Shown here one piece after another: positions 19,580 through 61,829 of a stretch of DNA of 64,000 nucleotides. Each line of letters opens with the position of its first letter. The first letter of the stretch is position 1. A program made the translations under genes and the position numbers. This DNA comes from Schmidtea polychroa (lineage: Eukaryota): the NCBI GenBank assembly GCA_044892525.1, contig CM097885.1:12712001-12776000 (forward strand). The letters are read 5' to 3'. Under the pieces are notes generated by a model. That model had not been told where the DNA came from, did no database searches, and was given only the letters and a program-made list of their open reading frames with translations.

Positions 19580-19690
19580 TTTCCTACCCCTTCCATGATT
19601 TTGATTGGTCAGAATATATTTATTTTTCCTACCCCTTCCTTGATTTTGATTGATCAGAATGTAATCATGTGTAATATATAAGCAGTAACT
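19580..19690 (+). promoter_or_regulatory. Putative pPolB promoter (duplicated inverted CCAAT module plus TATA)
   Basis: Two copies of TTTTTCCTACCCCTTCC.TGATTTTGATTG.TCAGAAT followed by TATATAAG. Also at about 27496-27552, and a related copy at about 40435-40475. Confidence 0.55.
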
Positions 19691-19941
19691 TTTCAAATGT
19701 TTGTCATTTAAACTTTTAATTTAACTTATATAAGTGAATAATTTTTTATTCTCTATCTAATATTAATGATTATTTTCTTTTAGTGAACGGATGCAGTTTA
19801 TATAAATTTTGTATTGCCGAAAGTCATGAAGATGTGGAGAACTGTAAATCAGTTACATCATCATATTTCAAGATAAATGACTCTACCTTATCGGGTTACA
19901 TATGTCCGGAATGTCTTATTATATCACCAGGTAGGTGGTAA

Positions 19942-22900
19942 ATGTTTGTACGACAACACGGACACCATCTTAGAAGATTCGAAGAAACGAAGAGCAGGAT
20001 GATCACTAAAAGTAATACTCTTTCTACTATTAACAATTATTAATTTTTTATAGTACAATCGAAAATGAATACATCATACGATCCTAAGCAGATTAAAGAA
20101 TATGTTACAAGTTATGTTATTTAAGTTGTTTAATATTAATTATAAATATAGTTAGACAAAACTCTGGCACCACAAAACGAAAGTCAATATTTTACGGAAA
20201 TGGAGACTCTAACATACAATTGTGTCCACGTCGGGAGTCTGACTTAAATGGTTCTCGTGTTGAATTGACAAGCGATGTATCTGCAATTAATTCTCCTGAC
20301 ATTGTTGTTCCAGATTGCCTCATCAAAGAAATAGAAGATCATATTCAACGAATGGGGACAGTAAAAATCCAATTTGGACTTTGTGCAGAGTTTATCAAAG
20401 AGGATGGTGAAATTAAAAAATGGTGTTTGTCGAATAAAGCAATTACAATGTCATCTTCATTTATTAATGATGGAATTGAAAAATTAAAAGAAAAGTTGAA
20501 GAAATACACTCAACAAAGTAGTGGGTGGAGAATTCATAAAATATTAGAAGTTACTATGATTTTAACTAAATTATCAGACATAATCCATGTATCTGGTAAG
20601 TTTATTTACATTATTATATATATAAATCAAGATATTTACTTAGGTTCAAGTTACATTAAAACGCCAAATTACCTGAAAAACTGCCAGGCTTTAGTTAATG
20701 TTCAAAATAATGATCAATTCTGCTTTTTATATAGCATACTGGCCGTATTTCATTATGATGACATACGTCGGGATAGAGAAAGAACAACAAAATATAACTT
20801 AAGTGGTAATATATATATTTATAAATGTCATAAATCATTGAAATTTGTTTTTAAGACTTAAAATGGAAATTTGAATGGTTTCCGATGAAGTTGGTTAACA
20901 TTTGCCAATTCGAAGCAATGAATCTAAATCTAGCGATCAATGTTCTCAAATATAATAAAGATCCAATTAAACAAAAAACTAATGATATTTTCAAGAATCC
21001 GTTCGTTGACTTGGTATATAGAAGTACTTCGACGGGATCTCAAATATATCTCTTATTGATTGAAGAAGGTAATATTTCCATTAATCATTAAAATATTAAC
21101 TAAATTTTAGAATTAAATTATCATTTTTTGGCTGTAACCAATCTCGATCGACTGCTGAATTACAGAGATAAAGTAGAAGGAGTCAGAATCCAATCACATT
21201 GGTGTCATACATGTCTTCATGGGTTTCAAAAACGTCCTGCTTTTGAAAGACATATAGGTCTTTGTAGGAAGAATGTGGAGCGGACGACTCTATACTCAAT
21301 GCCAGAGAATAAATATATCGAATTTAAAGACTGGAGTAAAACTATAAAACAGCAGTTTGTTGTCTACGCGGACTTTGAATCAATATTACCTCTAGATGAC
21401 AAGCACTTCCAAAAACATGAGCCGATTGCATCTGAATTTGTGCTTCTTCATCAAGGTTGTCCGATTCGAAATGAAACATTTGTTGGGAAAAACTGTATCA
21501 TTCAGTTTATACAAGCATTGGATGATATAGCTACAGACATAGTTTATCCGTGGTATAAAATTAATGGATCGAAGGAAATGATGGAACTCACTTGGGAACA
21601 GCAGGAAGAATTTACGAATCAAACTCATTGCTACCTTTGTAAAAAGATTATCAATATACCTGTTCGGGATCATGATCATTTTACTGGTCAATATCTCGGA
21701 GCAGCATGTCAACATTGCAACTTGGCTAGAAGAATCAATCCGTCTTTACCTGTTGTATTTCACAATCTTCGTGGATATGACATTCATCATATATTAAAAT
21801 ATGCAATTGCAAAATTCCCCGATTGGAATTTAAATGTTATTCCTCAATCAACAGAAAGTTTCTCACACTTACAGCGACATCGAAAGGCAGAAGAATTAGA
21901 TTCATTGATTCTTTACAACTTTTAAATAGCAGCTTGGCAAATTTATCAAAAAATTTACCATGTCTTCCACTGACCTCAGATGTTTTCGAATCACAGATGA
22001 TGACTTGTAAAACCATTTTTCCTTATGATATGGCTACATCAATGGATGCTTTACAGTCAATAACAGAATTACCACTGATTTGGGAGGGAGTTAGTGAAGA
22101 AGATTATATACATGCAAATCGAATCTGGCAACAATACAACTGTGAGACACTGCTAGATGCTAATATATCTCAAGCTGGATGTTTTTCTGTTGGCCGATGT
22201 TTTTGAAGCTTTCAGAGAAAAAACATTTGACGAAGATGGACTTGAGGCTTTATCGTTTGTTTCCATACCCGGATTAAGTTGGGCATCAGCTATTAAACAG
22301 TTACCTGAACCGGTAGAACTTATTCAAGATCCAGAGCTTTACCGTTTATTTGAAGCTGGTATTCGTGGTGGAATGACATTTATCAACAAACATCATGTTG
22401 AAGCTGATGAATCAACACAAATGTCATGCCTAGATGTTAATAATTTATATGGATGGGCGCTGTCGCAAAAACTTCCTATTGGTGAATTTAGATGGATAAA
22501 TGATCAGACTGAAATGAATGGTATTGTTGAAAGATGTGCAAATGGGGATGAGTTTGATGGAGATCGTGGATATGTTCTAGAGGTTGACATCGTCATTCCT
22601 GATAGTATACAAGATAAGCTAGATGATTTACCTATAACTCCTGAGCTTTGTTATCCACCTGGTAGTAAAGTTGAAAAGCTGTTGTTAACTCATGAGCCTA
22701 AGAAAAACTATGTAGTTAATGGTAGAATTTTGACAGAGTGGTTGAGTTACGGCGCAAAAGTCACAAAAGTTAATCGTGCTGTAGAATTCAAGCAAGTGGC
22801 TATTTTCAAAGGATATATTGATTACAATACCAAAATGAGAGCAGCTAGTACGGATTCGTTTCAGCGAGATTATTATAAGTTAAAGAACAACAGTTTATAC

Positions 22901-23710
22901 GGTAAAACTGTGGAAAACTTGAAGAAACGTATAAATTTGAGATTATGCAGCAAAAGCAAAAGATTGATAACTTATTGTAGTAATCCTATGTTTTGTCGTA
23001 GCATCAAGATTGTTGATGATCTCATTGCTGTTATACTTGATAAGGAAATGGTGTGTTTAGATAGACCAATGTATATTGGACAAACCGTACTTGATTTATC
23101 TAAACTTCGCATGTACCAGTTTCAATATAAAGAACTACAGAGTTATAGAGAAGAATTCAATTGTCAAATTAATATCGTAGCCGGTGACACAGATTCCTTC
23201 TTTTTAGAGTGTAAAAATGTTGATTTACGCTTACAACTATATCCAAAAATGATTGAAGATGGGCTCCTAGATACTTCAAATTATCCAGTGACTGATCCAT
23301 TGTTCTCAGATAAAATTTGTTCGGTAATCGGGAAAGTTAAGGATGAGAATAAAGGAAATCAATATAAAGAATGGGTGTTTCTTCGACCCAAGTGCTACTC
23401 ACTCCAAGGCGATAAAAACACTCTAAAAGCCAAAGGAATAAGTCTTACAAATTCTAATATCACCCATGAAGCTTATAAAAAAGTGTATACTGATGGTCGA
23501 ACAGTGAGCATCCAACAAAAGAGAATAGGAAGTGTTAATCATCAGTTGTATACTTTCATTACAGAAAAACGAGCTCTCCAATGTTTGGATGATAAAAGGT
23601 ATTGGTTCAATTCTAATGAAAGCTATGCCTACGGTCACTATAAGATTCGTCAAATGCATATTGCAACTGCTCCGTCTACAAATGAATACAAATCGAAACA
23701 AGCACTTTAA
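19942..23710 (+). pseudogene. polB: Polinton/adintovirus protein-primed DNA polymerase B, spliced, with two frameshifts
   Basis: Exonuclease motifs YADFES, FHNLRGYD, YLKLDV; polymerase motifs LDVNNLYG, KLKNNSLYGK, GDTDS; EndoVII-like CYLC..RDHDHFTG..CQHCN. Introns 20012-20053, 20111-20151, 20596-20643, 20806-20855, 21069-21110. Frameshifts near 21860 and 22157. Start codon uncertain. Confidence 0.92.
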
Positions 23711-25621
23711 CAATTAAATTTATGTGAATAATAAAATATATATTGTGAATTATTTGACTTAGTTAATTAAAATGTGTTTTATCATTTAATTATTCATTTG
23801 TCCAATTAATTTAGATAATTAGTTTCAAGTAAGAAATATTATTTTTGTGTTTATTTTATTTATTTTTTCCGAAAAATTAATATCCGGTTTATCCAAAATT
23901 AACTCAGCGTTTTATTTTATAATAAATTAAATAATTTCTAATTAAAATTTTATTCAAATTGAATAATTACTAATTAAAATTTTATTCAAATTGAAATATT
24001 ATTGTTATAATTTACCTCTTGTTAGAATATAATGTAAATGTAAAATTAAAAAAAAAAATAAATAATAATAATAATAATAAATAAATAAAATAATACTAAA
24101 ATAAAAACATAATAAAATAATTAATTAAGAAAATTAAAAAGAAAAAAAAATAAATAAATAAATATAAGTAATTAAATAAAATTTAAATTAAAAAATAAAT
24201 AAATTAATTAAAAAAAAAATAAATAAATAAAAATAAAAATAAATAATAATAAAGCGTAAGTAATTAAAATAAAATATTAATAAACTAATAAATTAATTAA
24301 ATGTAATAAATTAAAAATTAACTAAAGTAAGTAATTAAAATATAACATCATAAAATAATTAATTAATAAAATTAAAAAGAAAAATTAAAAAGAAGTAATT
24401 AAATAAAATGTTAATTTAAAAAATAAATGATTCGATTGGTCTATATTTGATCTTGATATTCCATGACCTTGAAAGTGCGCTGGAGTCCTCATTATATACT
24501 ACTGGTTATCGTTGTGATTTATTCATCCCAGATGCCCAAATGATTTGTTGAAATATATTCCCTCCTGTGTACCCATGACTCCGAGTCATGTTGGTGCTGT
24601 ACACCGAGGTCGGAACTTGTGAGCAGGTGAGCTCCGTTGCCAAAACTACTCCTCACAGCATTCGCGGTTCGGGTTCGGAATGCCTTAGAAGGACTTACAT
24701 CACTAAATGTAGGGAAATCGAAAAAATAATTCGACAAGAATATTTTTTTCAATGAAAAACAAATAAAATTTTTAAAATAATTAATATAAAAAATAAAAAT
24801 ACTTAATCAAAAATTAAGAATAAATAAAATATTATATCAAAAATGAAATTTTAATATTAAAAAAAATTAATTTTTAAAAATGATAAATATTAAATATTAA
24901 ATAAATAAAATTTAAAAATTTAACAAAATTAAAATAATATTTTTTCTGTATTTTTCTTAATATTTCATCTTTTTACTATATATTAATTTCATTTTATATG
25001 TATGTTTGAATGTTTATATAATCCACACAAATCTTGCGACGACAAAATAATTTACTTCTTGCGCTCAGATCGAGCTGAAATTTGGCAGATTATTTCTTCA
25101 TTGAGAACAATGCATTCGTTCAAAATTTCAGATCGATCGAAGGTATCATAATTAATTTTTAAAGGTTTTCAAAATTTCTTTCAAAATATTAATCAAATGT
25201 TCATTTCAAAGAAATTTCTTAACTAGGTGATTTTTCGTAATATTAAATATTTCTAGATTTTCTGGTTTCCCGACTTTTTTTAATTTTCGGGATTCGAAAA
25301 ATTCTCATTTTTGATAAAAATATTTCTCGAGAATCGGGATGATTTTTAAATTTCCCGAGAATTCTCGTGATTTCCCGAATAAAAATCCTATATAAAACTA
25401 AAAAATAAAACTAATTTGAACAAATAAATGGTATTTTGGTATTCCTTTATTGAAAACAAAAATTATACATTAAATAATTCATAATAATTAAATTAAAAAT
25501 ATTCATATATAACTATATATTTTTTGTATTACAAATACAATTTATTGAAAAAAAATGAAAATGAAAAATAAAAGAAGCAATAATAACCTTAAAACCTACT
25601 GGTCCCAACTAATACAATAAA

Positions 25622-27337: not shown

Positions 27338-28675
<1,338 letters not shown>

Positions 28676-28756
28676 AGTAGATGGTATGGTCACCGCGAAA
28701 ACAGGTCACCGCCAGCACAAAGACATTCCCCCCCCGCCGGGAAAATTTTTTTTTCA

Positions 28757-28949
28757 ACTTGAGAACAAAGACATATGACTCATCCGATGACTCATCAAGC
28801 ATTCAAGGTCGACTTGAGAACAAAGACATATGACTCATCCGATGACTCATCAAGCATTCAAGGTCAACTTGAGAACAAAGACATATGACTCATCCGATGA
28901 CTCATCAAGCATTCAAGTTCGACTTGAGAACAAAGACATATGACTCATC
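28757..28949. repeat. 55-bp tandem repeat x3.5 in the left Polinton arm
   Basis: ACTTGAGAACAAAGACATATGACTCATCCGATGACTCATCAAGCATTCAAGGTC unit at 28757, 28812, 28867 and 28922. Confidence 0.95.
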
Positions 28950-29168
28950 AATGATATATAATTATTATTATTTTTAAAAATATTATTATTTCTAATGTCT
29001 TTGTGCTCGCGGTGACCTACTATTTGGCCTGCCAAAAGATATCGTTTCCATCAACTTATTTAATCGATCAATGACTCATTCTGAAGCTTGGTGCAAGACC
29101 TTTCGAATGAGCTATAGTTGTCATCACCATCTTTATTATTGGCAAAGCTATTAACATTTTCCAAAGAC

Positions 29169-29252
<84 letters not shown>

Positions 29253-29361
29253 ATTAGTATTATTATTATTATTATATACTCCGAGTTTATCCGACAAAAT
29301 ATTTTGTCCCCCTATGGGTAATGCTCAAAAGGGTACTGCTCACGCTCAACAACTCACAAGG

Positions 29362-29417
<56 letters not shown>

Positions 29418-29529
29418 ATTAGTATTATTATTATTATTATTATATACTTCGAGTTTATCCGACAAAATATTTTGTCCCCTTATGGGTAATGCTCAAAAGG
29501 GTACTGCTCACACTCAACAACTCACAAGG

Positions 29530-29573
<44 letters not shown>

Positions 29574-29584
29574 ATTATTATTAC

Positions 29585-29659
<75 letters not shown>

Positions 29660-29891
29660 ATTTCAAATTTCTATCATATGTTAACTAAAAAAATCATGGT
29701 TAACTAAAAACATAGTCGAATATTATAAAATTTATAGTATTGTGTTAGCACACACTCGTTATAATAATTAGCAATATAGTTTTCCTGGTGTATCAAATCA
29801 AAACCTTTCTTTTACATTTATAGTCTATCAACCAATCAAAATCATACGGTATTAGTATAAATAAAACATCATATTTTAAATTATTGTAGAA

Positions 29892-30409
29892 ATGTCTCAT
29901 TTTATGGAAAATCTTTTAAGCGAACTTATCAACAAGAAGATTATGGAAAGCCTCAGTTTCCTGGTCGATCGGACCGAAAAGATTATAGAAGGAAATCATA
30001 TTGATTACGAAGATATGCTCAATTCCGATTGTCTCGAAACAAAAAAGTTTTATTTTCACCGGATATTTAATTGTCTATGTGATGACGAGATGAAGTGGAC
30101 CTGAATACTAGTAGGGTTTGCATATATGAAAATCATCATAGAAAAAAGTTTATGGGACTCTGAACATTATTATCAGTGGTCTCAAGAAGTAATACTTTTA
30201 TAATCTATATTTTAATAATATTTATTTTCTAGATAATCAAGTCCAAATTTCAACCATGGATTGAAGCCAATGGCGGATGGGGTGTATTGAACCAACTCGC
30301 TCGAAATGCAAAAGAAATAGATGAACAGAAAAAGTTTAAAACCTATGTAAAACTTGCAACAGGTGTTGCTATTTTGTATGCTTTATCGCGATTTGTAAAT
30401 AAAAATTAA
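29892..30409 (+). pseudogene. Bcl-2-like protein (exons 29892-30188, 30233-30409; about 157 codons; premature TGA at 30102)
   Basis: BH1-like LCDDEMKWT*ILVGFAY, BH2-like WIEANGGW, hydrophobic tail LATGVAILYALSRF; 44-nt GT-AG intron. Confidence 0.8.
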
Positions 30410-30526
30410 TGTAGTTATTTTGTTTTTTAAATAGATTTTTAAATAAAAAATTAATCTAGTTTTTTTTTTTTTTTTTAAATAAAATTAATATAGTTTTTTT
30501 TAAATAAATTAACAAACAATAATTAA

Positions 30527-30894
30527 CTAAAATTTATTAACACATTCGCAGTCGTCATCTCCACATTTCATTATATTTTCAACGACATGATCAATACAAT
30601 CATTCGTAATATTATCTTTAGGTTCCTCTATAGGTTCATCTATAGGTTCATAGATTTCGTCATCAATTTCTTGAGTATCGGTTTCTTGAGTTTCTTCCTG
30701 ATCGTCAAATCCTGTATCTTGACTCTCAACTACCCAGCCGATATTTAATGCATTTGTAACAGATAATATGTCCTCAATTTTTACACCAGCTATTTCTGCT
30801 AATTTTTCAAACAAAAAGTTGATTAATAATTCTAAATAATAAATAATTCGGTATTTAATTAATCATGTTAACCTTTTTCTGCAGTCATTTTCAT
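30527..30894 (-). CDS. Small acidic protein of unknown function (exons 30894-30873, 30831-30527)
   Basis: A 41-nt GT-AG intron joins MKMTAEK to ELLINFLFEKLAE...; D/E-rich, Cys-containing C-terminus; TATAAA upstream. Confidence 0.65.
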
Positions 30895-31021
30895 CACTTT
30901 AAAGCTATATTTTAAGTTTGTTTATAGATTTTCTTTGTTAAATTTGCATGTCATTTGCATTTATGTTGCAATTAATAAATAGAAAAAACAAATATGACTA
31001 ATACATTTATAAAATATAACA

Positions 31022-31432
31022 TTAAAATATTTGTGATAGTCTAGCAGACATAATTTTCCAAATAGGGGAATATACATCATTATTATCAACTTTATATCCC
31101 TGGATTGCAATTGTTATATACCAATTTTCATTTTCTTTGAAACCGATTTCATCAAAAGCATCATAAAATCTTGCATATCTATTGTTGAACCAGGCATGTT
31201 GATTACACGATAGATTCGAATCTATCCGTTTAAAAACATCATCAATAGTTTTAACATCTATCATTGAAAGCGTGCCGGATAAGAATTGAAATTTAGTTGG
31301 AATTAGCTTGACGGGTGCAGCCAATTTCATATTGATTTCTTCTTTCAAAAAATACATTTTGTAGTTGTGGAACATTTGAACTGGTTGTACCATTTCTTTA
31401 GGTCTTTCGGTGCATGAAATTTTCTTGGTCAT
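31022..31432 (-). CDS. 136-aa protein, putative OB-fold single-stranded DNA-binding protein
   Basis: Intact ATG ORF with upstream TATATAAA. C-terminal strand pattern YITIAIQGY...YSPIWKIMSARL resembles T7 gp2.5/NCLDV-type SSBs; function is inference. Confidence 0.6.
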   Translation of the reverse strand: MTKKISCTERPKEMVQPVQMFHNYKMYFLKEEINMKLAAPVKLIPTKFQFLSGTLSMIDVKTIDDVFKRIDSNLSCNQHAWFNNRYARFYDAFDEIGFKENENWYITIAIQGYKVDNNDVYSPIWKIMSARLSQIF

Positions 31433-31692
31433 CGTAAATAATGATTAAAATGAAATGTTACAGGGTTTATATACCTTTGACTCATGCCTATCAACCAATC
31501 AGATTATAGCATGTCTTTGTTTAAATTGCATGTCATTTGCATTAATGTTGCATTAATGTTTTTATTATAAATATTGTTTTTATTATTATTATTTCAAATA
31601 TTACTATTATTACTTATATTATTACTATTTCTATTATTATTTCTATTTCTATTATTTCGATTTACAAAAACAAAACAATTCAACATAAAAAT

Positions 31693-32099
31693 TTATTTTG
31701 ATACAATCTGACTCGAGTGGTGATTTCTCAGAGTCTTCACCAAACACCATTCAACATATTGTTGATAACGGAAATTGCAGCAGCTACATCCGAAAATGCA
31801 AGGAGCCTCTGGTTTCATTTCTTTCATCACCCTTCCTATCTTGACATCCCATAGAAAGGTGTTTATTATATCGAATATCCAGATTCGTGTTTGGTTGTAT
31901 ACCGAATCCGGAATGATAGCTGGATCTCTATCTTGTAGAATTTCATTTAATTCTGGATAATAAAAGCATAATCTTTGCAGGATAATTGATTGATATTCAT
32001 CTGTAAAAATATATATTAATGTAATAATAAAAATTTGAAATTACCATAATTTGCATACTCTTTCATTGAGGTGATTGCGGAACTTTGTATGTTGTACAT
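31693..32099 (-). CDS. Spliced 120-aa hypothetical protein (exons 32099-32045, 32000-31693)
   Basis: MYNIQSSAITSMKEYANY|DEYQSIILQRLCFYYPEL...PCIFGCSCCNFRYQQYVEWCL...SK*. 44-nt GT-AG intron; open throughout; missed by the ORF track. Confidence 0.7.
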
Positions 32100-32159
32100 T
32101 TTTGTTGAATAAATGATTTCTAAACAGAAAACATATTGTTTAAAACAATCATTAACCAA

Positions 32160-32597
32160 TTAGAAATTGACCAATGAAATTATCTCATTTCGAACATTGT
32201 CAACAAATTCTCTATACTCCAAATTTCTCAACCCCAACATGACAACCTTTCCACTAGCAAACACGTTGACACATATAGGGTTATATTTTAATAGTCTTAG
32301 TGCCGGAAACAATTCTGGTTCAAACATACAATCACATTTTTTTGACATGTTATATAGGTTGATACTATGTCCCATATCCATAGTAACGGTAATTGATTGG
32401 ATTTTAATATTATTTATTCGATATTGTAATTTATTAATATCCAAGGGTTTCTTACATCCCATGATTCTACATTTGCCTGTCTTGAAAAATATTATCGGAT
32501 ATTTCCCGCTTCTATCGATAATTTGCTGGGGTTTCCCTGGTGGGAACCTCATATTCGATACATCAAAATTTCCTCGATAATTTATATTTGCTAACAT
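32160..32597 (-). CDS. TATA-binding-protein-like protein (145 aa)
   Basis: Two TBP-type repeats: ANINY...IIFFKTGKCRIMGCK and KIQSITVTMD..HSINLY...FEPELFPALRL...VNVFASGKVVMLG (compare TBP YEPELFPGL...LIFVSGKVVLTG). Confidence 0.88.
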   Translation of the reverse strand: MLANINYRGNFDVSNMRFPPGKPQQIIDRSGKYPIIFFKTGKCRIMGCKKPLDINKLQYRINNIKIQSITVTMDMGHSINLYNMSKKCDCMFEPELFPALRLLKYNPICVNVFASGKVVMLGLRNLEYREFVDNVRNEIISLVNF

Positions 32598-32696
32598 TAT
32601 TAAATCATTTATGAAAGTTAGTCTTTATATACAAATTGAGCACGAGTTCATTAAATCATCGAATATAAACAAATACACATTTATAAAATTTTTGAA

Positions 32697-33323
32697 ATGG
32701 AATTAAGAAATGATGCAGTATACCAAATCGTTGGTCCGAGTGGTAGTGGAAAAACATTATTTGTTTGTAAATTACTAAAATCAAATTTATTCAAATCAAA
32801 ATTCAACAGGATTTATTGGCATAGGGGTGCTGATGAAGAACATGGATTAACTCAATCAAGTTTCTGTAAATTAAAAAACATGAAAATAGTAAAGGGATTC
32901 GATAAAAACTGGTCCAGCCGATTAAAGAAAGGTGATGTCATTATTATCGATGATTTGTATCAAGAAGCTAATAAAGAAAAAGATTTTAATAATTTATTTA
33001 CAAAGATCAGCAGACATGTCGGTGTAACAGTTATTTTCATAACACAAAATCTATTTCATCAAGGTGGAGCACATCGAACACGTAATTTAAATGTACAATA
33101 TTTAGTTATTTTCAAGAATCCTAGAGATGCAATAGTGATTGATTTTCTTGCACGTCAAGCATACCCTAACAATCGTAATTTTCTTATCAGTGCATTTCAA
33201 GATGCTACAAAAATACCTCATGGATATATATTTCTTGATTTCACACAACAATGTCCCGATGATTTACGAGTAAAAACAGATATTTTCAACCCAAAAGGTG
33301 CCATGGTTTATAAACAAAGTTGA
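32697..33323 (+). CDS. A32/FtsK-like DNA packaging ATPase
   Basis: Walker A GPSGSGKT, Walker B IIIDD, SRH..VTVIFITQNLF, YLVIFKNPRD. Confidence 0.95.
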   Translation: MELRNDAVYQIVGPSGSGKTLFVCKLLKSNLFKSKFNRIYWHRGADEEHGLTQSSFCKLKNMKIVKGFDKNWSSRLKKGDVIIIDDLYQEANKEKDFNNLFTKISRHVGVTVIFITQNLFHQGGAHRTRNLNVQYLVIFKNPRDAIVIDFLARQAYPNNRNFLISAFQDATKIPHGYIFLDFTQQCPDDLRVKTDIFNPKGAMVYKQS

Positions 33324-33341
33324 AAACCTCTATGAATAATA

Positions 33342-33875
33342 ATGTTTCTAAAAGCAAGGGTGAAAAATATTAGGAAATTAAGAAAAAGTATTAGAAAGAG
33401 TATTAAAGTTCCAAAAGTTCCACCAACTACTAGTTATACACCATCTAAAAAACTTGTAACTGAAAATTTCTCTGCAATGAATCTTATTTCGAAAAATCCT
33501 AAACCTAAACGTAAAACCCGTAAAACCCGTAAAACCGGTAAAAAAGTAGTTAAAAATCATCGCAGTTTTCCATTTTTTAATGCATTGTTAAAGGCCACGA
33601 GTATGAAAAGAATGAATATATTGCAATCATTTCCAAATTTTGTTGTCGATGATTTACTCAATATTATACTTAAAGTAGTCAAAGGCAAAATTAAAATCAG
33701 TAAATCAAAAAAGCATTTATTGAGCAAACATAGGAAACCATTGTTATCTTTAGTAAATAATAAAAATCGTAAGCAAATGAGGAAAATTATATATAAACAA
33801 CAAGGTGGATTTATTGGTGCATTGATACCTCTGGCATTATCATTATTAGGTGGAGTTGTAGGAAATCAATCATAA
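33342..33875 (+). CDS. Basic core protein with pX-like C-terminal peptide
   Basis: Very K/R-rich. Ends QQGG|FIGALIPLALSLLGG, resembling an adenain cleavage site plus an adenovirus pX-type hydrophobic tail. Confidence 0.75.
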   Translation: MFLKARVKNIRKLRKSIRKSIKVPKVPPTTSYTPSKKLVTENFSAMNLISKNPKPKRKTRKTRKTGKKVVKNHRSFPFFNALLKATSMKRMNILQSFPNFVVDDLLNIILKVVKGKIKISKSKKHLLSKHRKPLLSLVNNKNRKQMRKIIYKQQGGFIGALIPLALSLLGGVVGNQS

Positions 33876-33936
33876 ACAATGGGTGCTAATCCTTCATTGC
33901 CCGACATTAAATTTAATTTTAAATCTTCTTGTTGTA

Positions 33937-35071
<1,135 letters not shown>

Positions 35072-35075
<4 letters not shown>

Positions 35076-36088
35076 ATTTTTATACTATTTTACCGAGCAA
35101 TAGTTGCCCATTAATTCATCCAGACAATCAAGCCAGTAAATTTATGGTCAATCTCCAGAATCCGATTTCTTTAAATGGGGACTGGGAAGTTGCACTGCAA
35201 GATTTTACATTCGTGTACAATACATTCCAATTTTATAGTCAATGTAAGATTGATTTCAAAAGGAATATTGTGAAAATATGTAGCGGTATCTTTGTTATCA
35301 GTAATTATGATAAAACATATCATATTCCGAATCAAATATTAGATTCGCATTGCTATATGTTTTACAAGGATGGATTAAATATCAGTTGTGATTTTAAACC
35401 ATTTACAATAACATTCGAAACTATTGAAGATGCCAAACGAATGGGTTGTAATAAGTTGAAAAATATTGTTACGGAGACCGAGTATTTATTACGTTTTAAT
35501 CTATTTGAAGCAAACAGTGTAATGAAAGAAGAAATCAAAATATCTGTATCGTATAATGATGAAGTTGAAGAATCATTTACCTTTGCTGATGAATTATATT
35601 TTGATAAACTTGATGATTTACTTAAATATTTAAAGTTCAATTGTTCACACATATTTAAAAATTTGGAAATTGTGAAAGATTTGATGTTTACCTTCAGTTT
35701 GAATGATGATATTTGCGAAGTTACATTTGATAAAAATTTGGCAAATTCACTTGGATTAGATAGGCAAAAATATCGAGAAAAATCGACTGGTATACGCAAA
35801 CCAAGAATACTAGAACATCATCAACAAATGTTCATATATACTAACATTATCGAACCCATAATTGTTGGTGATTCCAGTGTTCCTCTTTTGAAATCGGTAT
35901 GGATTGGAAAATATGAACATGATGAAGTTGTCAATATAAATATCGATAATCCCATGTATTTACCAATAGCAAGTTCATGTATAAACAATATAGAAATAAA
36001 TATTCGTGATGATAGTGGAAAACTTATAAACTTTCCAAAAGGTTCAAAAACTCATTTGACATTACATTTTCGTAAAATAAATGGCTAA
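35072..36088 (+). CDS. Minor capsid (penton-like) protein; start apparently mutated to GTG
   Basis: NFYTILPSNS...F.V.L..PI.L.GDWEVAL and MFIYTNIIEP.IVGD...PLL...NPMYLP...IEINIRDDSGKLINF...LTLHFRK are typical Polinton penton motifs. Confidence 0.88.
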
Positions 36089-36443
36089 TTCTGATATTAT
36101 TAGTATGTATAGTGGTAGCCAATCTGGCGGTGAATTACCATATTTTATTGGTAAACAGTACGGATCAGGATGGTTGAGAACAATTGGTAGATTTGCCCTG
36201 CCTATTCTTAAACGTATTGGTAGTTTTGGTATGAAAACTGCAAAAGATGTTATTATGAATGAACAGAAAATATTACCATCTCTAAAAACAAATGCTATAG
36301 CTGAATTAGGGAAGGTTTTACCAGGGGTTGCAGGTATGTTTCAAAAAGATACGCCTCCAGCTCCAGCTCCAAAGCGTAAAAGACATGGAATATCACGTAT
36401 AAACAAACGAATGAAAGGACACGGAACTATATTTGCAAAATGA
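36081..36443 (+). CDS. Conserved Polinton small virion protein with amphipathic helix (pVI-like)
   Basis: QSGG and QYGSG motifs followed by WLRTIGRFALPILKRIG; basic C-terminus; overlaps both neighbours. Confidence 0.75.
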   Translation: MANSDIISMYSGSQSGGELPYFIGKQYGSGWLRTIGRFALPILKRIGSFGMKTAKDVIMNEQKILPSLKTNAIAELGKVLPGVAGMFQKDTPPAPAPKRKRHGISRINKRMKGHGTIFAK

Positions 36444-37636
36444 TTTGTGGTAAATCCGAATTATGTATATTTGATAGACCATCGCCTCAAGCGGTAATCG
36501 AATTTGGGGCATTTGAGGAAGTTTTTCCTATGAATTCAATTACCGATAGTAGAAATGATATAGAGTTTTATATTAATGGTTCGCAAACTGAATATTTAGA
36601 TTTGAACGATACTTTATTGACTGTTCAGATCAAGGTTGTAGATAAAGATAGAAAAGTTTTGGATGCCAATGCAGATGTAATACCGAACAATTTCATGTTT
36701 CATACTCTTTTTAAAGATGCAGTGTTGGGATTTAATAATATCAAGATTGAGGGTGGAAATAATACATTCATTCACAAGGCTTTGATAGAAACTATTTTAA
36801 ATTACAATTCTGATACTAAAAATACATGTCTTACTCCTATGGGTTATGGCAGTGATGATGAAAGAAAAAAGTGGGTAAAAGGCTCAAAGGTTTTCACCAT
36901 GTGCTCATCATTACAACTTGATTTTATGGATCAACCGAAATATTTACTACCGGGAGTTAATGTACATATTATACTGAAAAGGTCTGATTCTGCATTATCT
37001 CTTACTAGTGCAACTGGTGCACCAATGTGTCAATTAGTTGATGCAAAATTATTGGTGAGAAGAGCAGGTCATCAATTGGGTCTTAATTCAAAACATGCAA
37101 TTTATCCATTAAAAACAAAGAAAATTGTACAATTTGCTATTGCTAAAGGTGCTTCATCTTTCTATAAAGAACAAATATTTGGTGACCGAAGAATGCCTAA
37201 TTTTATTCTGATAACATTTCAAAGTGAAGCACAATATAATGGATCATATACTGCGTCCAGCTCAATTTTCAAAAACTTTGGTGTTAAATCATTGACTTTG
37301 TCGAAAAATACTGATTATAGAGAAACATATATTCAAGATTTCGAGAATGACAATTACTGTGCGACATATATGCAGAGTATTGTTAGAAATCTGGGTTATT
37401 TAGATAAAAATTTGAATTGCGGAATAACTCTAGAAGATTTAAAAAGCAAATACCCATTTTTTACATTTGTTTTAGCCCCTGATTTTGATTTAAATCAAAG
37501 TCAATTACCTCAAAATGGAAATTTACGACTGGATATAAAGTTTGCAAAAGCTATTACTGAACCAGTACATGTTATAATATATGGAGTATTTGAAAATGAA
37601 GTTCAAATTACTGCAAATAGAACAGTGTTGGTATAA
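36440..37636 (+). CDS. Major capsid protein (double jelly-roll)
   Basis: CGKSELCIF..P..Q..IE...IEFYI.G...YLDL, QPKYLLPGV, GNLRLDIKFAK. Possible short in-frame deletion after LLVRR. Confidence 0.92.
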   Translation: MICGKSELCIFDRPSPQAVIEFGAFEEVFPMNSITDSRNDIEFYINGSQTEYLDLNDTLLTVQIKVVDKDRKVLDANADVIPNNFMFHTLFKDAVLGFNNIKIEGGNNTFIHKALIETILNYNSDTKNTCLTPMGYGSDDERKKWVKGSKVFTMCSSLQLDFMDQPKYLLPGVNVHIILKRSDSALSLTSATGAPMCQLVDAKLLVRRAGHQLGLNSKHAIYPLKTKKIVQFAIAKGASSFYKEQIFGDRRMPNFILITFQSEAQYNGSYTASSSIFKNFGVKSLTLSKNTDYRETYIQDFENDNYCATYMQSIVRNLGYLDKNLNCGITLEDLKSKYPFFTFVLAPDFDLNQSQLPQNGNLRLDIKFAKAITEPVHVIIYGVFENEVQITANRTVLV

Positions 37637-37775
37637 ATGTATACAGAAACACAAAAAGTTGTCATGGAGTAAGTTGTTTTTTTATACTCTGGATTTATTT
37701 AAGTAGTTCTGTTCAGGTCAATAAAATCGGAAAACAGATATTGGGAAATGAATTTGTTGGAGTTTTTCCTCTTTC
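37637..37775 (+). pseudogene. N-terminal stub of an adenain-like cysteine protease
   Basis: ATG abuts the MCP stop. After a short GTAAGT..AG intron it reads ..MD(S)SVQVNKIGKQILGNEFVGVFPL, then breaks off; catalytic region absent. Confidence 0.55.
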
Positions 37776-39559
37776 CAGATAACAACTCACCTGAATGTTT
37801 TGAACAAAAATGAGCGAAATTGAGAACAAACGATTAGATGGCGATTAACTTCTGGCCACATCCCTAACAACATGAAAATTAAGATTTTAATTATTGAATT
37901 CGTTGTTTTCTGCCTGGAAATACTAACAGAATATTTTTTAATTCAAAGAATCTTCATTATAAATTTTTGAATTTAAAAAATTAAATGAAGGATATATTAA
38001 ATTTACAATACATAATATTATATAAAATTATACTATATTTATTAATAAATTTAGAATACATAAAATTATAATATTATAATATTTTATAAAGTTATACTAT
38101 ATAATAATGTTTAAATATGCTTAAATAACTAAAGTGTTTAAATATGTTTAAATACTAAATTTAAATTATTTAAATTTAGATTATTTAAATATAATTTTGA
38201 TATAACTTTATTTCTTTCGTTTTAGTATCCATAAAGTAAGTAAATAAAGAATTTACTACAATATTTTAATTATTTTACTTAGTAATGAAGAAAATGAATT
38301 ATATGATTATGAAGAAAATGAACCAGACAAAATGGTGAAACACTAATGGAGTTATAGTTCCGGATTTTTTAAATGAATTAGATGATTGTGGGTGTCCTTC
38401 AACATGAATGTTTACTTAAATTATGTAAACTTTCTTTCAACGAATGTCAAGAAAAATGGGAAAAATCGATGTTTTATCAATTAAGTAAAGTACTCGTCAT
38501 ACCTGAAGAATATTATTATTAATGTAAGATATGAATTAATTCTTTAAAATATATATATTATATTTAGGTATCTGTGTTTTATGGTGGGAAATGATATTGA
38601 AAAAGTATACCACAAATAACAGTTGCCTAATTTATCAAGCCTGTGATGATAAAATGTTAGATAATGTAAGTTAATTGCTTTTAAATCAATATAAATTTAG
38701 CAATGATAGTTGACACCACATCAGAAACTAAGAAATATGTCCAATTCGCAAGATGTATTCCATGAAATCACTATCAAATGGCCTGATGGAGAGATTAATT
38801 TTGAGATGGATTACCAACAGAAGAGCGAGAAAAATTTGTAAATTAAATATAATAGGGTTGGGTGGGTCCTCTTTATCCCTTAATTAATATATATTTACAA
38901 GCTGATCGTCGTGGTGGGCGGTTGTAATCCAACTAGTGGGAGGCCTCTGTAAATATATATTTGTGTTAGTGAAAACAATAATTAATTTGGTTATAGTGCC
39001 AATGACGCATGTATTTTGAAATTATACGTTTCGAATGTGCTAGTAGTTGACTACCCATGCTAGGCGTAATGTTCCGTACGGAAAACTATAATGCCCAGGT
39101 TCTTCTGACCCCACTTGGGGGAGGCACAGACGACCCTTGTGGACGCGAACAAATATCCACCGTGTCTTTCAGGCACAGATATTTGGTCACTGCTCATTAG
39201 GCCTGGCAATACTAAATGCATTAACTTTGCCTTGTCCTCTCTTGTCTTGATTTTTATCGTTTAAAAGTGTGTGTGATAAGTTTTATTTACTAACCTTAAT
39301 AAACCATAATATGCTTTAAGATCGAAAACCCTTGTTGAGTGTGAGTAGTACCCTTGCTAGCAATACCCATAGGGGGACAGAATATTTTGTCGGATAGACT
39401 AGGAGTAAATACACCCATGTTAAACAAGGTATGTGTATATAGAATGTGTGTGTAAAATTATCGCTCCTTATTGACAACTTCCTGTAAAGGCAAACACAGA
39501 ATACTGCAAACATAATAATACTCTACCCCATAACTTAGTATGTAAAAATTATTTAAGGT

Positions 39560-40267
<708 letters not shown>

Positions 40268-40622
40268 TCCCGCGCGTGTTAATACTTAAAAAGAAAATAT
40301 TGAAAATTTAAAAAATAATAATATTTATGCAAAGCATGTGCAATAATTATGTCTTTGTTAATTAAGTAAACTTTAGTGTCAAAATAAGTTTTTAAAATAT
40401 TTTTAAATTTAAAATACCGCAACTTAATATATTTTTGTTCTACCCCTTCATTGATTTAAGTTGGTCAGAATTTAATAATAATTATATTATACCCTTTGAG
40501 ACATGTTGAATGTGAGTAGTACACCTTTGACCATTACCCATATGAGCAATACCCATAGAGGGGGACAGAATATTTTGTCGGATAGACTCTGACTATATAT
40601 GATAATAATATTCCCTGCGCGC

Positions 40623-40670
<48 letters not shown>

Positions 40671-40929
40671 TGAAATTGTATTTGAAAATGTTATGAACTG
40701 TGGAGATGATGAATTTGAATGTGTTAATAAATTATAGTTTGAGTGTATATTTAAAGTATAATATTTAGAATTTCTTTGTTAAAGTTTTGTCTTGAATATT
40801 TTTACCAGTAGCTTTGTGAACAGTACCCATGTGACTTGTTGAGTGTGAGTAGTACCCTTGTGTGCAGTACCCATAGGGGGACAGAATATCTTGTCGGATA
40901 GACTAAGTGTATATATAATAATAATAATA

Positions 40930-42270
40930 ATAATAAATGACCTTGAAAAAATAAATGACCTTGATGAGTCATCACGATGAGTCATATGACCTTGGGAATG
41001 ACCCTGGGTGAGTCACGCGACCTTGAAATGACCTTGATGAGTCATGGTCTTTGTTTAAATGACCTTGGTGAGTCATATGTCTTTGTTTAAAATTTGACCT
41101 TGACCTTTTATTAAAAATTTAACCTTGACCTTTTATTAAAAATAATATTTTGAAAAAATAAATGACCTTGAAAATAGTCTCGGGTAAACGTTAATAACTT
41201 TGTCAATATTAATGATGATGATAATATTTATACATCAGTAGATAGATCTTGCACTAAGCTTCAAAATAAGCTATCAATTAATAAATTCGGATAATGGGAA
41301 CGATAACATTTGGGGCAAACGAAAACCAGGTCACCGCTGGACCACTAATAATTATATGACCTTGAAAATGATTTTTGGTTAAATGTTAATAACTTTGTTA
41401 ATATTAATGATGATGATACCTTCTATGGATCAATCGAAAGGTCTTGGACCGAGCTTTAAAATGAGGTATCGTTTAATAATATTTGTTGGAACTCTGTACA
41501 TTTAAGTTTTAAAATATGACCTTGAAAAATTTAATGATCACTTAATTAAAACAAAAAATTAAATTAAAAAATGACCTTGAAAAAAAAATGACCTTTATGA
41601 GTCACGCGACCTGGAAAAAATAAATGACCTTGAAAAATAAATGACCTTGGGAATGACCCTGAAAAATTAAATGACCTTGAAAAAATAAATGACCTTGGAA
41701 ATAATGATATTTTGAAAAATAAATGACCTTGAAAATGGTCTCGGGAAAACGTTAATAATTTTGCCAATAATAATTATATTAATAATATTTATATATCAAT
41801 AGTTAGATCTTGCACTAGGCTTCAAAATAAGCTATCGATTAATAAATTCGGATAATGGGAACGATAACTTTTGGGATGGAAAAAAGTGTGAGCCCACCAG
41901 GCCACATAATAATATTTTGGAAAATAATAATAATTTAACTTTGAAAAGATGGTGGTCATCAAATTTTAATAACATTAAAACTATCAAAGATATATAAGAT
42001 ACCTATAGCTCATTCGAAAGGTCTTGGACTGAGCTTTAAGATGAGGTATCGTCCAATAAAGTCCGTTGGCGGGAACATTAATTTTTGGGATGAAAAAAAG
42101 TAGGAGCCCGCCAGACCACTTAATTAAAACAAAAAATTAAATTAAAAAAAATAAATAAATGACCTTGACCTTGACCTTTTATTTTTAAAAAAAAAATTTT
42201 TCCCGGGGGGGGGGAGGGGGTATATGTGTCGCGGGGAGCTCCTGTTCTGGGGAGCTCCAATCATACTACT
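40930..42270. repeat. Right terminal arm of the Polinton with TGACCTTG/TGAGTCA clusters and duplicated subterminal blocks
   Basis: Blocks at about 41130-41560 and 41700-42180 are diverged duplicates, inverted-homologous to 28960-29170. Confidence 0.8.
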
Positions 42271-56794: not shown

Positions 56795-56855
<61 letters not shown>

Positions 56856-59649: not shown

Positions 59650-59997
59650 CAGGGGTGCCCATAAGGTCGATCGCGATCTACCGGTAGATCGCGAAGGATT
59701 TTTTAGTAGATCTTCATAAAAAAATATTTTTTATATAAATTTAGATTTTCTATAAAATTTCTGTTCTATGCTTAAATTTTTTGCCAATTTTCATGTTCTG
59801 TGTTCCATTTCTATGGTAATACTAAATAACATTTTTTAATTTTGATTTCACCATTTCCAAAATGTTATTTAGTTTAATTTATTTTAATTTAATTTTGTTT
59901 ATTTAGTTTAAATATTATGTAAGTATTAAAAAAGTAGATCGCATACACATTTTGGATGTGAATGTAGCTCTCCTAGAAAAATTAGTGGGCACCCCTG
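59650..59997. mobile_element. Second copy of the CAGGGGTGCCCA hAT MITE
   Basis: Near-identical to 2025-2371; 8-bp TSD ATATATAT. Confidence 0.95.
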
Positions 59998-61551: not shown

Positions 61552-61594
<43 letters not shown>

Positions 61595-61602
<8 letters not shown>

Positions 61603-61766
61603 TAAAACAATAAAATGATAATTTAAGCCTTTTGCTGCAAATAATGTATTTAATGAAAGAATTTTCGACTATACGATAGGACTATCGTATAGTCGAAAAT
61701 TCTTTCATTAAATACATTATTTGCAGCAAAAGGCTTAAATTATCATTTTATTGTTTTAAATAATAA
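61595..61766. repeat. Perfect palindrome, 85-bp arms, 2-nt spacer
   Basis: ...TTTTCGACTATACGATAG GA CTATCGTATAGTCGAAAA...; arms 61595-61679 and 61682-61766. Confidence 0.95.
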
Positions 61767-61797
61767 ATGCTGCTACCAAGCAATCATCATTTTATAC

Positions 61798-61829
<32 letters not shown>

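Follow-up and report, generated by a model that had tools for sequence, protein, structure and literature searches.

A five-gene block with a TBP-like gene and two promoter classes in a Polinton/adintovirus-like family of Schmidtea polychroa

We analysed a 64,000-nucleotide stretch of the Schmidtea polychroa genome (contig CM097885.1, positions 12,712,001 to 12,776,000; hereafter the window), in which a virus-like element carries five compact open reading frames between its left terminal arm and its packaging ATPase gene, A on the plus strand and B, C, D and E on the minus strand. Two promoter classes sort by gene in this element and its relatives: a host-type TATA box precedes A, E and most copies of C, whereas the word YATAAAC, seen only as T/C-ATAAAC, precedes most virion genes. 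E encodes a TBP-like protein. In a single joint judgement, we consider it probable both that the element belongs to an endogenous Polinton/adintovirus family of which the five genes are the conserved accessory block, and that this block controls an infection program in two phases, in which E would drive the late genes through YATAAAC. The sequence-only reading of this DNA had proposed five small genes, and all of them are present, with GT..AG introns of 44, 41 and 44 nt in A, B and D. The main features are as follows.

28676..29660, plus strand: left terminal arm, which begins AGTAGA, holds internal repeats and TAT microsatellites, and has the same terminus as copy L002
29892..30409, plus strand: gene A, Bcl-2-family protein, exons 29892-30188 and 30233-30409
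30189..30232, plus strand: 44-nt intron of A, GT..AG in 29/29 aligned copies
30398..30417, plus strand: AATAAA signal and poly(A) site of A
30527..30888, minus strand: gene B, acidic protein of 106 aa, exons 30888-30873 and 30831-30527, 41-nt intron
31022..31432, minus strand: gene C, 136 aa, OB-fold of the T7 gp2.5 / Enc34 / ASFV CP312R single-stranded-DNA-binding type
31693..32099, minus strand: gene D, orphan of 120 aa, exons 32099-32045 and 32000-31693, 44-nt intron
32160..32597, minus strand: gene E, TBP-like, 145 aa, complete saddle of two repeats, with the long helix of repeat 1 missing
32697..37940, plus strand: virion module, with packaging ATPase, basic core-like protein, 75-aa ORF, integrase (interrupted), penton-like protein, PW, putative MCP and protease (broken)

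The window copy and its relatives together show features of a Polinton/Maverick. Copy L002, spanning 15,850 bp, ends in inverted termini (AGTAGA...) that are identical over 40 nt, with GACAAT as its 6-bp target duplication, and terminal inverted repeats starting AG with a 6-bp duplication are characteristic of these elements, as is the protein-primed family B polymerase of the close copies (PF03175, E 3.5e-19), which comes after the protease in 4/4 copies examined. The characteristic set of rve integrase, A32/FtsK ATPase and adenain was recovered across the window copy and relatives: the packaging ATPase matched Pox_A32 (E 4e-7), rve was below the cut-off in the interrupted integrase of the window and reached E 1e-12 in relative L046, and Peptidase_C5 was matched at E 3e-6 in copy L156. 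The putative MCP is a conserved ORF of ~400 aa at the expected place, with weak matches to Capsid_N (2/11, E 0.007) and to DJR-like proteins (1/11, E 0.04) and none among PDB sequences. Adintoviruses and Polintons/Mavericks thus have in common with this family or its relatives the terminal repeats, the packaging ATPase, adenain, the PF03175 PolB and an rve integrase bearing a chromodomain. Alpha-class adintoviruses are marked by an OTU-PF03175 PolB, a PLA2X gene and clustering with the Mayetiola reference; of these marks, PF03175 was matched here, and a PLA2-like gene was seen in the distant relative L098. The window copy itself is a decaying, defective insert. It is chimeric, in that its two ends do not match one another, it sits within a PolB fragment (28221-28676) of another element, and it has no PolB of its own. 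A PolB at 19.6-23.7 kb was considered as the polymerase of the element and rejected as part of a different element, with 39-60% identity to the PolB linked with the family's other copies.

The suggestion that such an element may be undescribed has to be narrowed, as Bcl2, TBP and SSDBP labels already stand on adintovirus/MELD maps. In the accessible parts of the adintovirus account (PMC8502044), Bcl2 and IAP homologues are reported, SSDBP is a label on a supplementary map, and TBP is named in the legend of a figure on MELD viruses from non-animal datasets. Those parts differ from our data in containing no five-gene spliced block, no conserved TBP-like gene in an animal Polinton clade and no promoter classes, and Schmidtea, Dugesia and planaria do not occur in the searchable text of the supplement. 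The terms TBP, TATA, Bcl and promoter are absent from the text of PMC11071308 and of two Polinton preprints; genome maps in figures, bioRxiv supplements, Repbase and subscription papers may carry such genes already. We found no paper on the YATAAAC box, and TATAAAC was absent among the best 25 of 243 matches.

At least 30 copies in the genome carry the block, as do diverged sister families, with its short GT-AG introns kept, and all five genes show purifying selection (dN/dS 0.08-0.38). Neither of the two outcomes that would have refuted the sequence-only reading, absence of the block elsewhere or lack of such selection, was thus observed. Open reading frames were retained by A in 21, B in 26, D in 18, E in 16 and the ATPase in 12 of 30 copies. 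Selection was strongest between subfamilies and on changes shared among copies, and weaker on singletons (0.10 vs 0.89 for E, 0.09 vs 0.62 for D and 0.15 vs 0.47 for A), the pattern expected of selection during element replication followed by decay after insertion. We conclude that selection acted on the genes while the element was still replicating. This pattern, together with the broken A of the window (premature stop at 30102-30104), makes it very improbable that the genes were kept for the host as domesticated cargo (a Bcl-2 protein protecting stem cells, for example) or are neutral hitch-hikers. Such a role would agree with A being open in more copies than the ATPase, with the reported de-silencing of planarian Polintons in differentiation (PMC8532177, accessible parts), and with the existence of probable-RNA contigs of A. 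Four runs were judged to be RNA by guess; one contig of run X5 joins 30188 to 30233, another carries a loose end of 21 A at 30417, where the genome is T-rich, and contigs across the introns of D (run X1) and B (run X5) were unspliced.

We then compared the sequences upstream of each gene, where the following elements were located.

29832..29863, plus strand: promoter of A, CCAAT at -60 and canonical TATAAATA at -36
30920..30926, minus strand: YATAAAC box of B, 38 nt 5' of the ATG, with two octamer-like ATGCAAAT words upstream (-72, -61)
31465..31499, minus strand: promoter of C, inverted CCAAT at -67 and TATATAAAC at -41, a word that in the window copy fits both box types
32624..32670: two promoters facing away from each other, a canonical TATATAAA at -34 of E (minus strand) and a YATAAAC at -33 of the ATPase (plus strand, 32664-32670)
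33309, 33792, 33871, 35980, 36025 and 36398, plus strand: YATAAAC boxes of the virion module

TATAAA lies 32-41 nt 5' of the ATG in A, B, C and E and not in D, in agreement with the TATA(T)AAA first noticed about 30-45 nt before four of the starts. The word occurs in ~3.2% of comparable element windows, which gives a P of about 5e-6 for four of five genes. In A, TATAAATA was present in 28/30 copies, and both CCAAT and TATA are retained in sister L129. Among the genes downstream of the block, six of eight in the window have a YATAAAC box of their own within 66 nt of the start; the ATPase, core, small ORF/INT, PW and MCP genes carry it, the penton-like and protease genes do not, and the boxes of the ATPase and core genes contain TATAAA and lie at -33. 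The ATPase box is intergenic in the window, and protein coding therefore does not explain it. YATAAAC was found at -60 to -25 before the ATPase in 24/27 dereplicated relatives, against a shuffled mean of 0.4 and none on the opposite strand. For the MCP, the same interval held it in 8/12 (11/12 within -95). Before the TBP-like gene the box was found in 0/59, where a canonical-type TATA pattern was present in 33/59 (shuffled mean 8.8). The sorting of boxes by gene gave a Fisher P of 2e-18, with relatives counted without kinship correction. The box is fixed in strand and distance. In another Polinton class of the same genome, with no TBP-like match in the stretches examined, it preceded 0/18 ORFs; this TBP-less control is one family from one genome, and the box-bearing loci were all obtained through the TBP-like gene. 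The sorting has exceptions in B, in further accessory ORFs and in some copies of C (among them the window copy and L031), and the boxes before C, like the unboxed penton-like and protease genes of the window, count against a model in which E drives the late genes.

The protein encoded by E matched PF00352 (E 1.6e-15), and its predicted structure (pLDDT 95.6) is a two-repeat saddle that superposes on human TBP with Z 13.2 and an rmsd of 2.5 Å over 144 residues. The whole saddle aligns with the cellular TBPs of human (7egb_P) and yeast (1ytb_A) at Z ~13 over 144-145 residues, and E shares with them the stirrup EPELFP, three phenylalanines and N4 (the yeast N69 position). Unlike these proteins, it is ~30 residues shorter, is only ~25% identical, and has polar DNA-facing residues in both repeats. 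It has 110 homologues and falls in a clade separate from the host TBP and TRFs (support 100/100), and the host genome has a canonical TBP plus several TRFs. Among 75 sequences, the DNA-facing changes were N6 in 72, R44 in 74, M46 in 75, P23 in 74, S68 in 71 and N111 in 75, taking the matched yeast TBP positions to have their canonical DNA-contact roles. F38, F97 and F113 were each present in 75/75 and the fourth intercalating position is P23; E thus lacks the full set of four intercalating Phe and canonical DNA contacts, which N6, R44, M46, S68 and N111 replace. The stirrup of the second repeat is intact, with E93, E95 and F97 nearly invariant. An outer clade (L090, L098 and L104) has kept the repeat-1 helix, yet shows the same N/R/M changes and the same boxes. 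If it reads YATAAAC, E would be a natural TBP with changed sequence specificity.

From these data we infer early and late timing, binding of E to YATAAAC and recruitment of TFIIB/Pol II, in the following order. Host-type promoters would first express the Bcl-2-like A, the SSB-like C and the TBP-like E; A would block cell death and C would serve replication with the family's PolB. The product of E would then bind YATAAAC, switching on the virion genes and the acidic B, and would recruit host TFIIB/Pol II through its intact second-repeat stirrup. Such a program resembles that of beta- and gamma-herpesviruses, whose vTBPs (BcRF1/ORF24/UL87) likewise accompany canonical early TATA boxes and a variant box at structural genes; in the element, too, the variant box is restricted to structural genes, exceptions apart. 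In the accessible parts of PMC4893493, EBV BcRF1 and MHV68 ORF24 bind TATT late boxes, five further viral proteins are needed, and BcRF1 alone cannot tell TATA from TATT in vitro. The last two points weigh against the role proposed for E. E differs in being a bare saddle of 145 aa with YATAAAC as its box, and its pairing with that box is read from sequence. Counterparts of the remaining five vPIC proteins did not turn up, and family searches gave no match for B, C or D. We see an even chance that a wider generalization holds, namely that a broad animal Polinton clade has a one-protein late switch, in which a reshaped TBP would read YATAAAC, borrow host TFIIB/Pol II and activate the virion genes together with late accessory genes such as B, with D as a small zinc-binding cofactor in flatworm lineages.

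Alternatively, host factors might read YATAAAC, either TBP/TFIID on replicated naked DNA or a forkhead-type protein, with E acting, for example, as a decoy for TFIIB or for TBP regulators that would damp down transcription of the host. ATAAACA is presumably a forkhead-type word too, and the C(-25) TATA variant of PDB 1qn3 is one that we take to read TATAAAC. Canonical TBP was crystallised on that variant, according to the title of the entry, and the host TBP may therefore read the box; the host owns a canonical TBP and several TRFs. Regulators contact the repeat-1 helix of TBP, which E lacks along with one of the four intercalating Phe. A decoy, however, would need no invariant new DNA-facing residues, and E has these. 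The absence of the box from the TBP-less family and from all 59 TBP-like gene promoters, and its fixed strand, distance and T/C-ATAAAC form, also argue against host readers, and we regard this alternative as unlikely. A late switch driven by E can be tested directly and without virus, using one protein and short promoter fragments, and would, if confirmed, make up the smallest system for viral late transcription known so far and speak for a true temporal infection cycle of these elements in the nucleus. It bears on the long-standing debate over the nature of animal Polintons, as viruses whose life cycle is regulated or as transposons only, with capsid relics.

The layout had initially been likened to that of adenovirus, in which one major late promoter drives the structural block as a major late unit. 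Five separately promoted early genes would then precede one co-transcribed late block with coupled translation. The gene junctions are tight, with overlaps of 47 nt for INT/penton, 8 nt for penton/PW and 4 nt for PW/MCP and a gap of 1 nt for MCP/protease. No AATAAA follows the ATPase or MCP stops within 80 nt, and 3' ends may therefore be shared. The position of the Bcl-2 gene next to the left end and the TATAAA of four genes fit as well. The coupling of structural genes holds for penton, PW, MCP and protease, which abut or overlap; co-transcription does not follow, since boxes at six of the eight genes downstream of the block, before the ATPase in relatives and before the MCP point to separate late promoters. 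Gene order and orientation also vary from family to family, as do block position and orientation in family 2 and metagenomic relatives, and an encoded TBP with a variant box resembles the herpesvirus arrangement instead. We therefore consider an adenovirus-like program improbable.

Nor is the block a uniform early region. The box of B reads TATAAAC(A), a word it shares with most virion genes, and TATAAACA stands before B in 30/30 close copies and in the diverged L129, L127, L179, L146 and L182, where 4-18 of the 20 nt on its left match. B is accordingly sorted with the virion genes by its box, an example of how this word can assign unknown genes to early or late classes by sequence alone. The protein has two conserved, helical-looking ends that flank an acidic linker of variable length. 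Its dN/dS is 0.35-0.38 against the sister, and changes shared among close copies were 11 non-synonymous and 1 synonymous. Profile and sequence searches returned no family. Tentatively, B may serve late as an acidic scaffold associated with the virion, or as an activator carried in it. A DSG-type degron was rejected, the word being lost in L146, L179 and L182, as was an LxCxE 'Oncoid' role for B or D, neither of which carries the motif.

The block appears as a mosaic, in which E and C are old Polinton genes and B and D are found only in families within this genome. C and the TBP-like gene share a locus in 21 of 80 metagenomic loci, where A, B and D were not detected by tblastn or HMM, many of the contigs being short. 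Scanning a viral contig collection with the TBP-like alignment, the ATPase and the MCP alignment confirmed no relative, and for B and D nothing above chance level was matched in Pfam, NCBIfam or PDB sequences.

The proposed SSB identity of C was supported by its predicted structure (AlphaFold pLDDT 90). In a search of 48,161 chains, the best four were DUF2815 and three viral SSBs (Z 6.5-7.2 over 101-124 residues), a gp2.5-type fold at moderate strength, with all Z below 8. C shares the OB-fold and a similar insertion with T7 gp2.5, Enc34 SSB, ASFV CP312R, DUF2815 and NCLDV relatives, but is below 10% identical to the gp2.5-type PDB matches and lacks the acidic C-terminal tail. Foldseek against the PDB placed Enc34 SSB best at a non-significant E of 0.09, BFVD gave 18 matches at E<=0.001, the named ones being uncharacterised giant-virus proteins, and the ESM Atlas gave no usable match. 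C has 102 relatives, and its dN/dS is 0.08-0.23; the SSB-looking ORF of L098 did not align with it (hhalign probability 0.2). Across 30 copies, the box of C was TATAAAAA in 16, TATATAAA in 10 and other or none in 4. Judging from the modelled fold, C likely binds single-stranded DNA and would serve strand-displacement replication with the family's PolB.

D carries a Cys cluster, C-x3-C-x-C-C in the window copy, and its TATA-less promoter has two inverted CCAAT words that lie inside the end of E. Its dN/dS is 0.14-0.19, with dS near saturation. In L128/L139 and L146/L182, a homologue of D directly follows the TBP-like gene (E 2e-4 to 0.06); no database homologue was found, and exon 2 had no usable ESM Atlas match and no candidate among 5.8 billion proteins. 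D might act early as a small regulator that binds zinc, perhaps as a cofactor of E, although this proposal is rather doubtful.

The assignment of A to the Bcl-2 family was likewise upheld. The PF00452 cut-off of 31.4 bits was exceeded by sister L129 (33.1, with an in-frame intron) and the family-2 copy L128 (32.7), and L128 matched Bcl-xL at E 2e-4. The exons of the window, scored separately, fell below PF00452, with a weak match of exon 2 to Bcl-xL (best E 0.08), and exon 1 found one near-identical protein. A has BH1/BH2-like segments and a hydrophobic C-terminal tail, with dN/dS of 0.16-0.22; it is likely anti- rather than pro-apoptotic and would block cell death. Viral Bcl-2 homologues such as adenovirus E1B-19K and planarian Burro retroelements, which carry a BCL2-like motif (PMC6431247, accessible parts), similarly combine a mobile element with a short Bcl-2-family protein with a hydrophobic tail. 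A differs in being closest to one host gene of the same genome, the single-copy L135 (E 1e-17), which lacks the intron position; 7 of 15 inner branches of the Bcl-2 tree were open and the tree did not resolve the host donor. In family 2 the gene is intronless, and sister copies have the intron at the same position with lengths of 30-60 nt. A was likely captured from the flatworm host and gained its new intron later, so that the intron would have arisen within a virus-like element after the host gene had been taken up.

The five accessory genes, encoding a Bcl-2-family protein (A), an acidic protein (B), an SSB-like protein (C), an orphan (D) and a TBP-like protein (E), were found by their ORF coordinates at the positions the sequence-only reading had given them.

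Accessory genes of the window copy
29892-30409, + strand: gene A; 44-nt intron; premature stop at 30102-30104 in the window copy
30888-30527, - strand: gene B; 106 aa; 41-nt intron
31432-31022, - strand: gene C; 136 aa
32099-31693, - strand: gene D; 120 aa; 44-nt intron
32597-32160, - strand: gene E; 145 aa

The TATAAA boxes noted before four genes lay 32-41 nt 5' of the ATG of A, B, C and E (P about 5e-6 for four of five genes, against a 3.2% background within the element), and the structural genes do abut or overlap, with downstream junctions showing overlaps of 47, 8 and 4 nt, or a 1-nt gap. A search of the genome (781 Mb, four very large contigs) with the block gave matches at 54 places, in 40 of 3,449 scored candidates; copy counts below refer to the best 30 of these 54. 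One copy, L002, has inverted termini and a 6-bp target duplication and spans 15,850 bp. Gene order in four close copies was block, ATPase, core, integrase, penton-like, PW, MCP, protease and PolB.

Recurrence of the block in other copies, on which the sequence-only reading had staked itself, was found at the 30 loci and in a sister subfamily. Frames were open in 21 (A), 26 (B), 26 (C), 18 (D), 16 (E) and 12 (ATPase) of the 30, the remainder being broken or scored absent or partial; five of the six copies scored as lacking D hold a diverged D (69-72% DNA identity). The GT..AG ends were kept in 29/29 (A), 29/30 (B) and 22/24 (D) copies. The sister loci (L126, L129, L130, L140, L141) carry the five genes with identical order and intron places, at intron lengths of 30-60 nt in A, 41-42 in B and 41-47 in D. 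Purifying selection, its other stake, was also seen, with dN/dS against L129 of 0.08-0.38 across A-E: 0.16-0.22 for A, 0.35-0.38 for B (upper CI 0.70), 0.08-0.23 for C, 0.14-0.18 for D (dS near saturation) and 0.16-0.25 for E, with 0.09-0.10 for the ATPase. Changes shared among close copies were mainly synonymous (pN/pS 0.08-0.15; singletons 0.30-0.89), gene B being the exception with 11 non-synonymous to 1 synonymous. For one pair dS ranged from 0.3 to 1.7 by gene, indicating single-gene exchange between subfamilies. The sequencing runs used were only guessed to be RNA; in one of them, X5, a contig joins 30188 to 30233 across the A intron and a second one ends in poly(A) at 30417, 14 nt past AATAAA. 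The introns of B and D, across which contigs were unspliced, are predicted from comparison among copies. The five genes are real and selected, and the Polinton family is abundant.

Upstream sequences fell into two classes, one with canonical, host-type TATA boxes and one with a virion-type box, YATAAAC. After dereplication, the latter stood at -60 to -25 5' of the ATPase in 24 of 27 loci (reduced from 30), against a mean of 0.4 in shuffled sequence and 0 on the opposite strand; the counts were 8/12 for MCP and 0/59 (reduced from 74) for the TBP-like gene, where 33 of the 59 show a canonical-type TATA pattern. In complete relatives YATAAAC stands before the majority of the virion genes and also before some accessory ORFs. 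In another Polinton class of the same genome (one lineage) it preceded 0/18 ORFs, and no match to a TBP-like gene was found in three 10-kb stretches of that class. The whole window holds 33 matches against 48 expected; the signal is one of placement, without window-wide enrichment. Within the block, canonical boxes precede A (28/30 copies), E (24/29) and mostly C, and no TATA box precedes D in 25/25 copies; D of family 2 (L128, L139) has TATAAATA with CCAAT. The B box, TATAAACA, is virion-type in 30/30 copies and recurs in five diverged copies whose flanks are dissimilar. This box and the YATAAAC before most virion genes speak against a uniformly early five-gene block and a co-transcribed late one, as had been proposed; a single transcript for the virion genes is unlikely. 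A word of roughly 40 nt with paired ATGCAAAT-like octamers was seen 5' of B, with a similar form 5' of C (30942-30960 and 31520-31560); it is not kept at L127, L146 and L179.

Gene E has 110 homologues; among 80 metagenomic loci with an E-type gene, 26 also held an ATPase and 35 some Polinton core gene. The predicted model (pLDDT 95.6) aligns with the whole saddle of TBP over 144 residues (Z 13.2, rmsd 2.5 A) and, unlike TBP, is missing the long helix of repeat 1. Element TBP-like proteins form one clade separate from host TBP and TRFs (100/100; tree of 18 rows). Three Phe and the repeat-2 stirrup are fixed, and N6, P23, R44, M46, S68 and N111 replace canonical residues at DNA-facing positions in 71-75 of 75 sequences, the roles of these positions presumably being those in yeast TBP. 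The host has a canonical TBP (L186) and several diverged paralogues (L187, L188, L189, L191, L192). TATA-less TBP-like genes (L071, L074, L077, L079, L083, L089, L091 and others) often have TGTTTTA about 50 nt 5' of the ATG, a weak signal by formal count (6/59, shuffled 1.7).

In the proposed scheme, genes A, C, D and E would be transcribed by host Pol II from their CCAAT/TATA promoters, the A product would hold off apoptosis, and the C product would coat the single strands displaced in protein-primed replication. Expression of B and the virion genes would follow once E, through its altered surface, had bound YATAAAC and brought in host TFIIB and Pol II. From the observed gene set and promoter classes we infer, with somewhat better than even confidence, the timing, binding and activities of these two phases. 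The main rival, which we consider rather unlikely, is that host factors read the YATAAAC box and E is a decoy. What makes the block of interest is the late switch that its TBP probably drives. The accessory content is already of known type, since adintoviruses have Bcl2 and IAP homologues according to Starrett et al. (PMC8502044), whose MELD map legends list TBP and whose supplementary maps include one with an SSDBP label. Beta/gamma-herpesviruses are an established case of a virus-encoded TBP paired with a variant late box (PMC4893493), and E with YATAAAC resembles that pair, binding by E being predicted. We found no published account of such a pair in Polintons in a search that left figures, bioRxiv supplements and Repbase outside; the accessible text of 10.1101/2024.03.25.586562 mentions anti-apoptotic genes in adintoviruses and lacks the term TBP. 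Planarian Polintons are described as piRNA targets de-silenced in differentiation (PMC8532177). Metagenomic relatives also carry accessory genes resembling, by eye, an E2 ubiquitin-conjugating enzyme (L046:225-719), a dual-specificity phosphatase (L033:4008-4316) and a RING protein (L068:1710-2168).

The model of C (pLDDT 90, from a 21-sequence alignment) matched DUF2815, T7 gp2.5, ASFV CP312R and Enc34 SSB best among 48,161 chains, at Z 7.2-6.5 over 101-124 residues; baculovirus LEF-3 ranked eighth. Foldseek placed Enc34 SSB first (E 0.09), with 18 viral models at E<=0.001. The scores are middling and the functional agreement consistent, suggesting a single-stranded-DNA-binding type. C has 102 relatives, and shares a locus with a TBP-like gene in 21 of the 80 metagenomic loci.

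Copies of A whose intron is in frame, read through, scored above the Pfam Bcl-2 cut-off, and family 2 has an intronless Bcl-2 gene adjoining C and E (Bcl-xL match, E 2e-4). The best host match of both was L135 (E 1e-17 and 3e-28; runner-up 8e-5 and 3e-4), a single-copy Bcl-2-type gene whose exon ends at a donor site past the BH2 motif; no Polinton genes were detected in the 20 kb examined around it. The simplest reading would be capture of A from the host followed by intron gain, because the A intron has no counterpart in position in L135 and is common to a 41%-identical lineage (L182); the Bcl-2 tree gave no resolved grouping of A with L135 as donor. Long polyproteins with weak similarity to Bcl-2, for which Burro elements serve as comparison (PMC6431247), are also numerous in the genome and, together with its AT richness, would fit a planarian. 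The genome further holds a tandem cluster of at least seven near-identical host-type Bcl-2-family copies (G000:C4:89.9-90.9 Mb, L111-L117).

Genes B and D were found in the Schmidtea polychroa genome only, and neither matched any known family. B has an acidic linker between two conserved ends; D contains a Cys cluster; in two other families, genes weakly homologous to it lie directly 3' of the TBP-like gene. Family copies also hold a multi-exon acidic gene between protease and PolB (L156:5915-6650, L147:5580-6050, L178:3350-3830), varying in content and orientation, with YATAAAC at -53 in L156.

The window copy is defective: A, integrase and protease are broken, the family's own PolB is missing and the two ends are mismatched. 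The PolB at 19.6-23.7 kb was ruled out as its polymerase and assigned to another element, since it shares just 39-60% identity with PolB of the family. A stretch holding PolB alone and a second, partial copy (19580-24050 and 27483-28676) are unrelated to the block's family, whose element is inserted at 28676 within the partial copy; the stretch has an 89-96% identical counterpart within a family-2 Polinton (L163) and may be a PolB-bearing unit with independent mobility. Past about codon 41 of the protease, the window copy (37760-42270) changes to a sequence that matches another element type (L160, 92-94%) and has a different terminus, making the copy chimeric. A TAT microsatellite within the integrase frame (34326-34446), with a GT donor adjoining and AG at its end, is absent in metagenomic relatives and family 2 and looks like a microsatellite-expanded intron. 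A 75-aa ORF (33879-34106) that starts MG, contains a CC pair and runs, in a different frame, over the integrase start is conserved in relatives and possibly encodes a myristoylated virion peptide. Finally, a long inverted repeat at 55392-63266 (arms 55481-57305 and 61096-63152, 99% complementary, made of short tandem words) probably represents the ends of another element.
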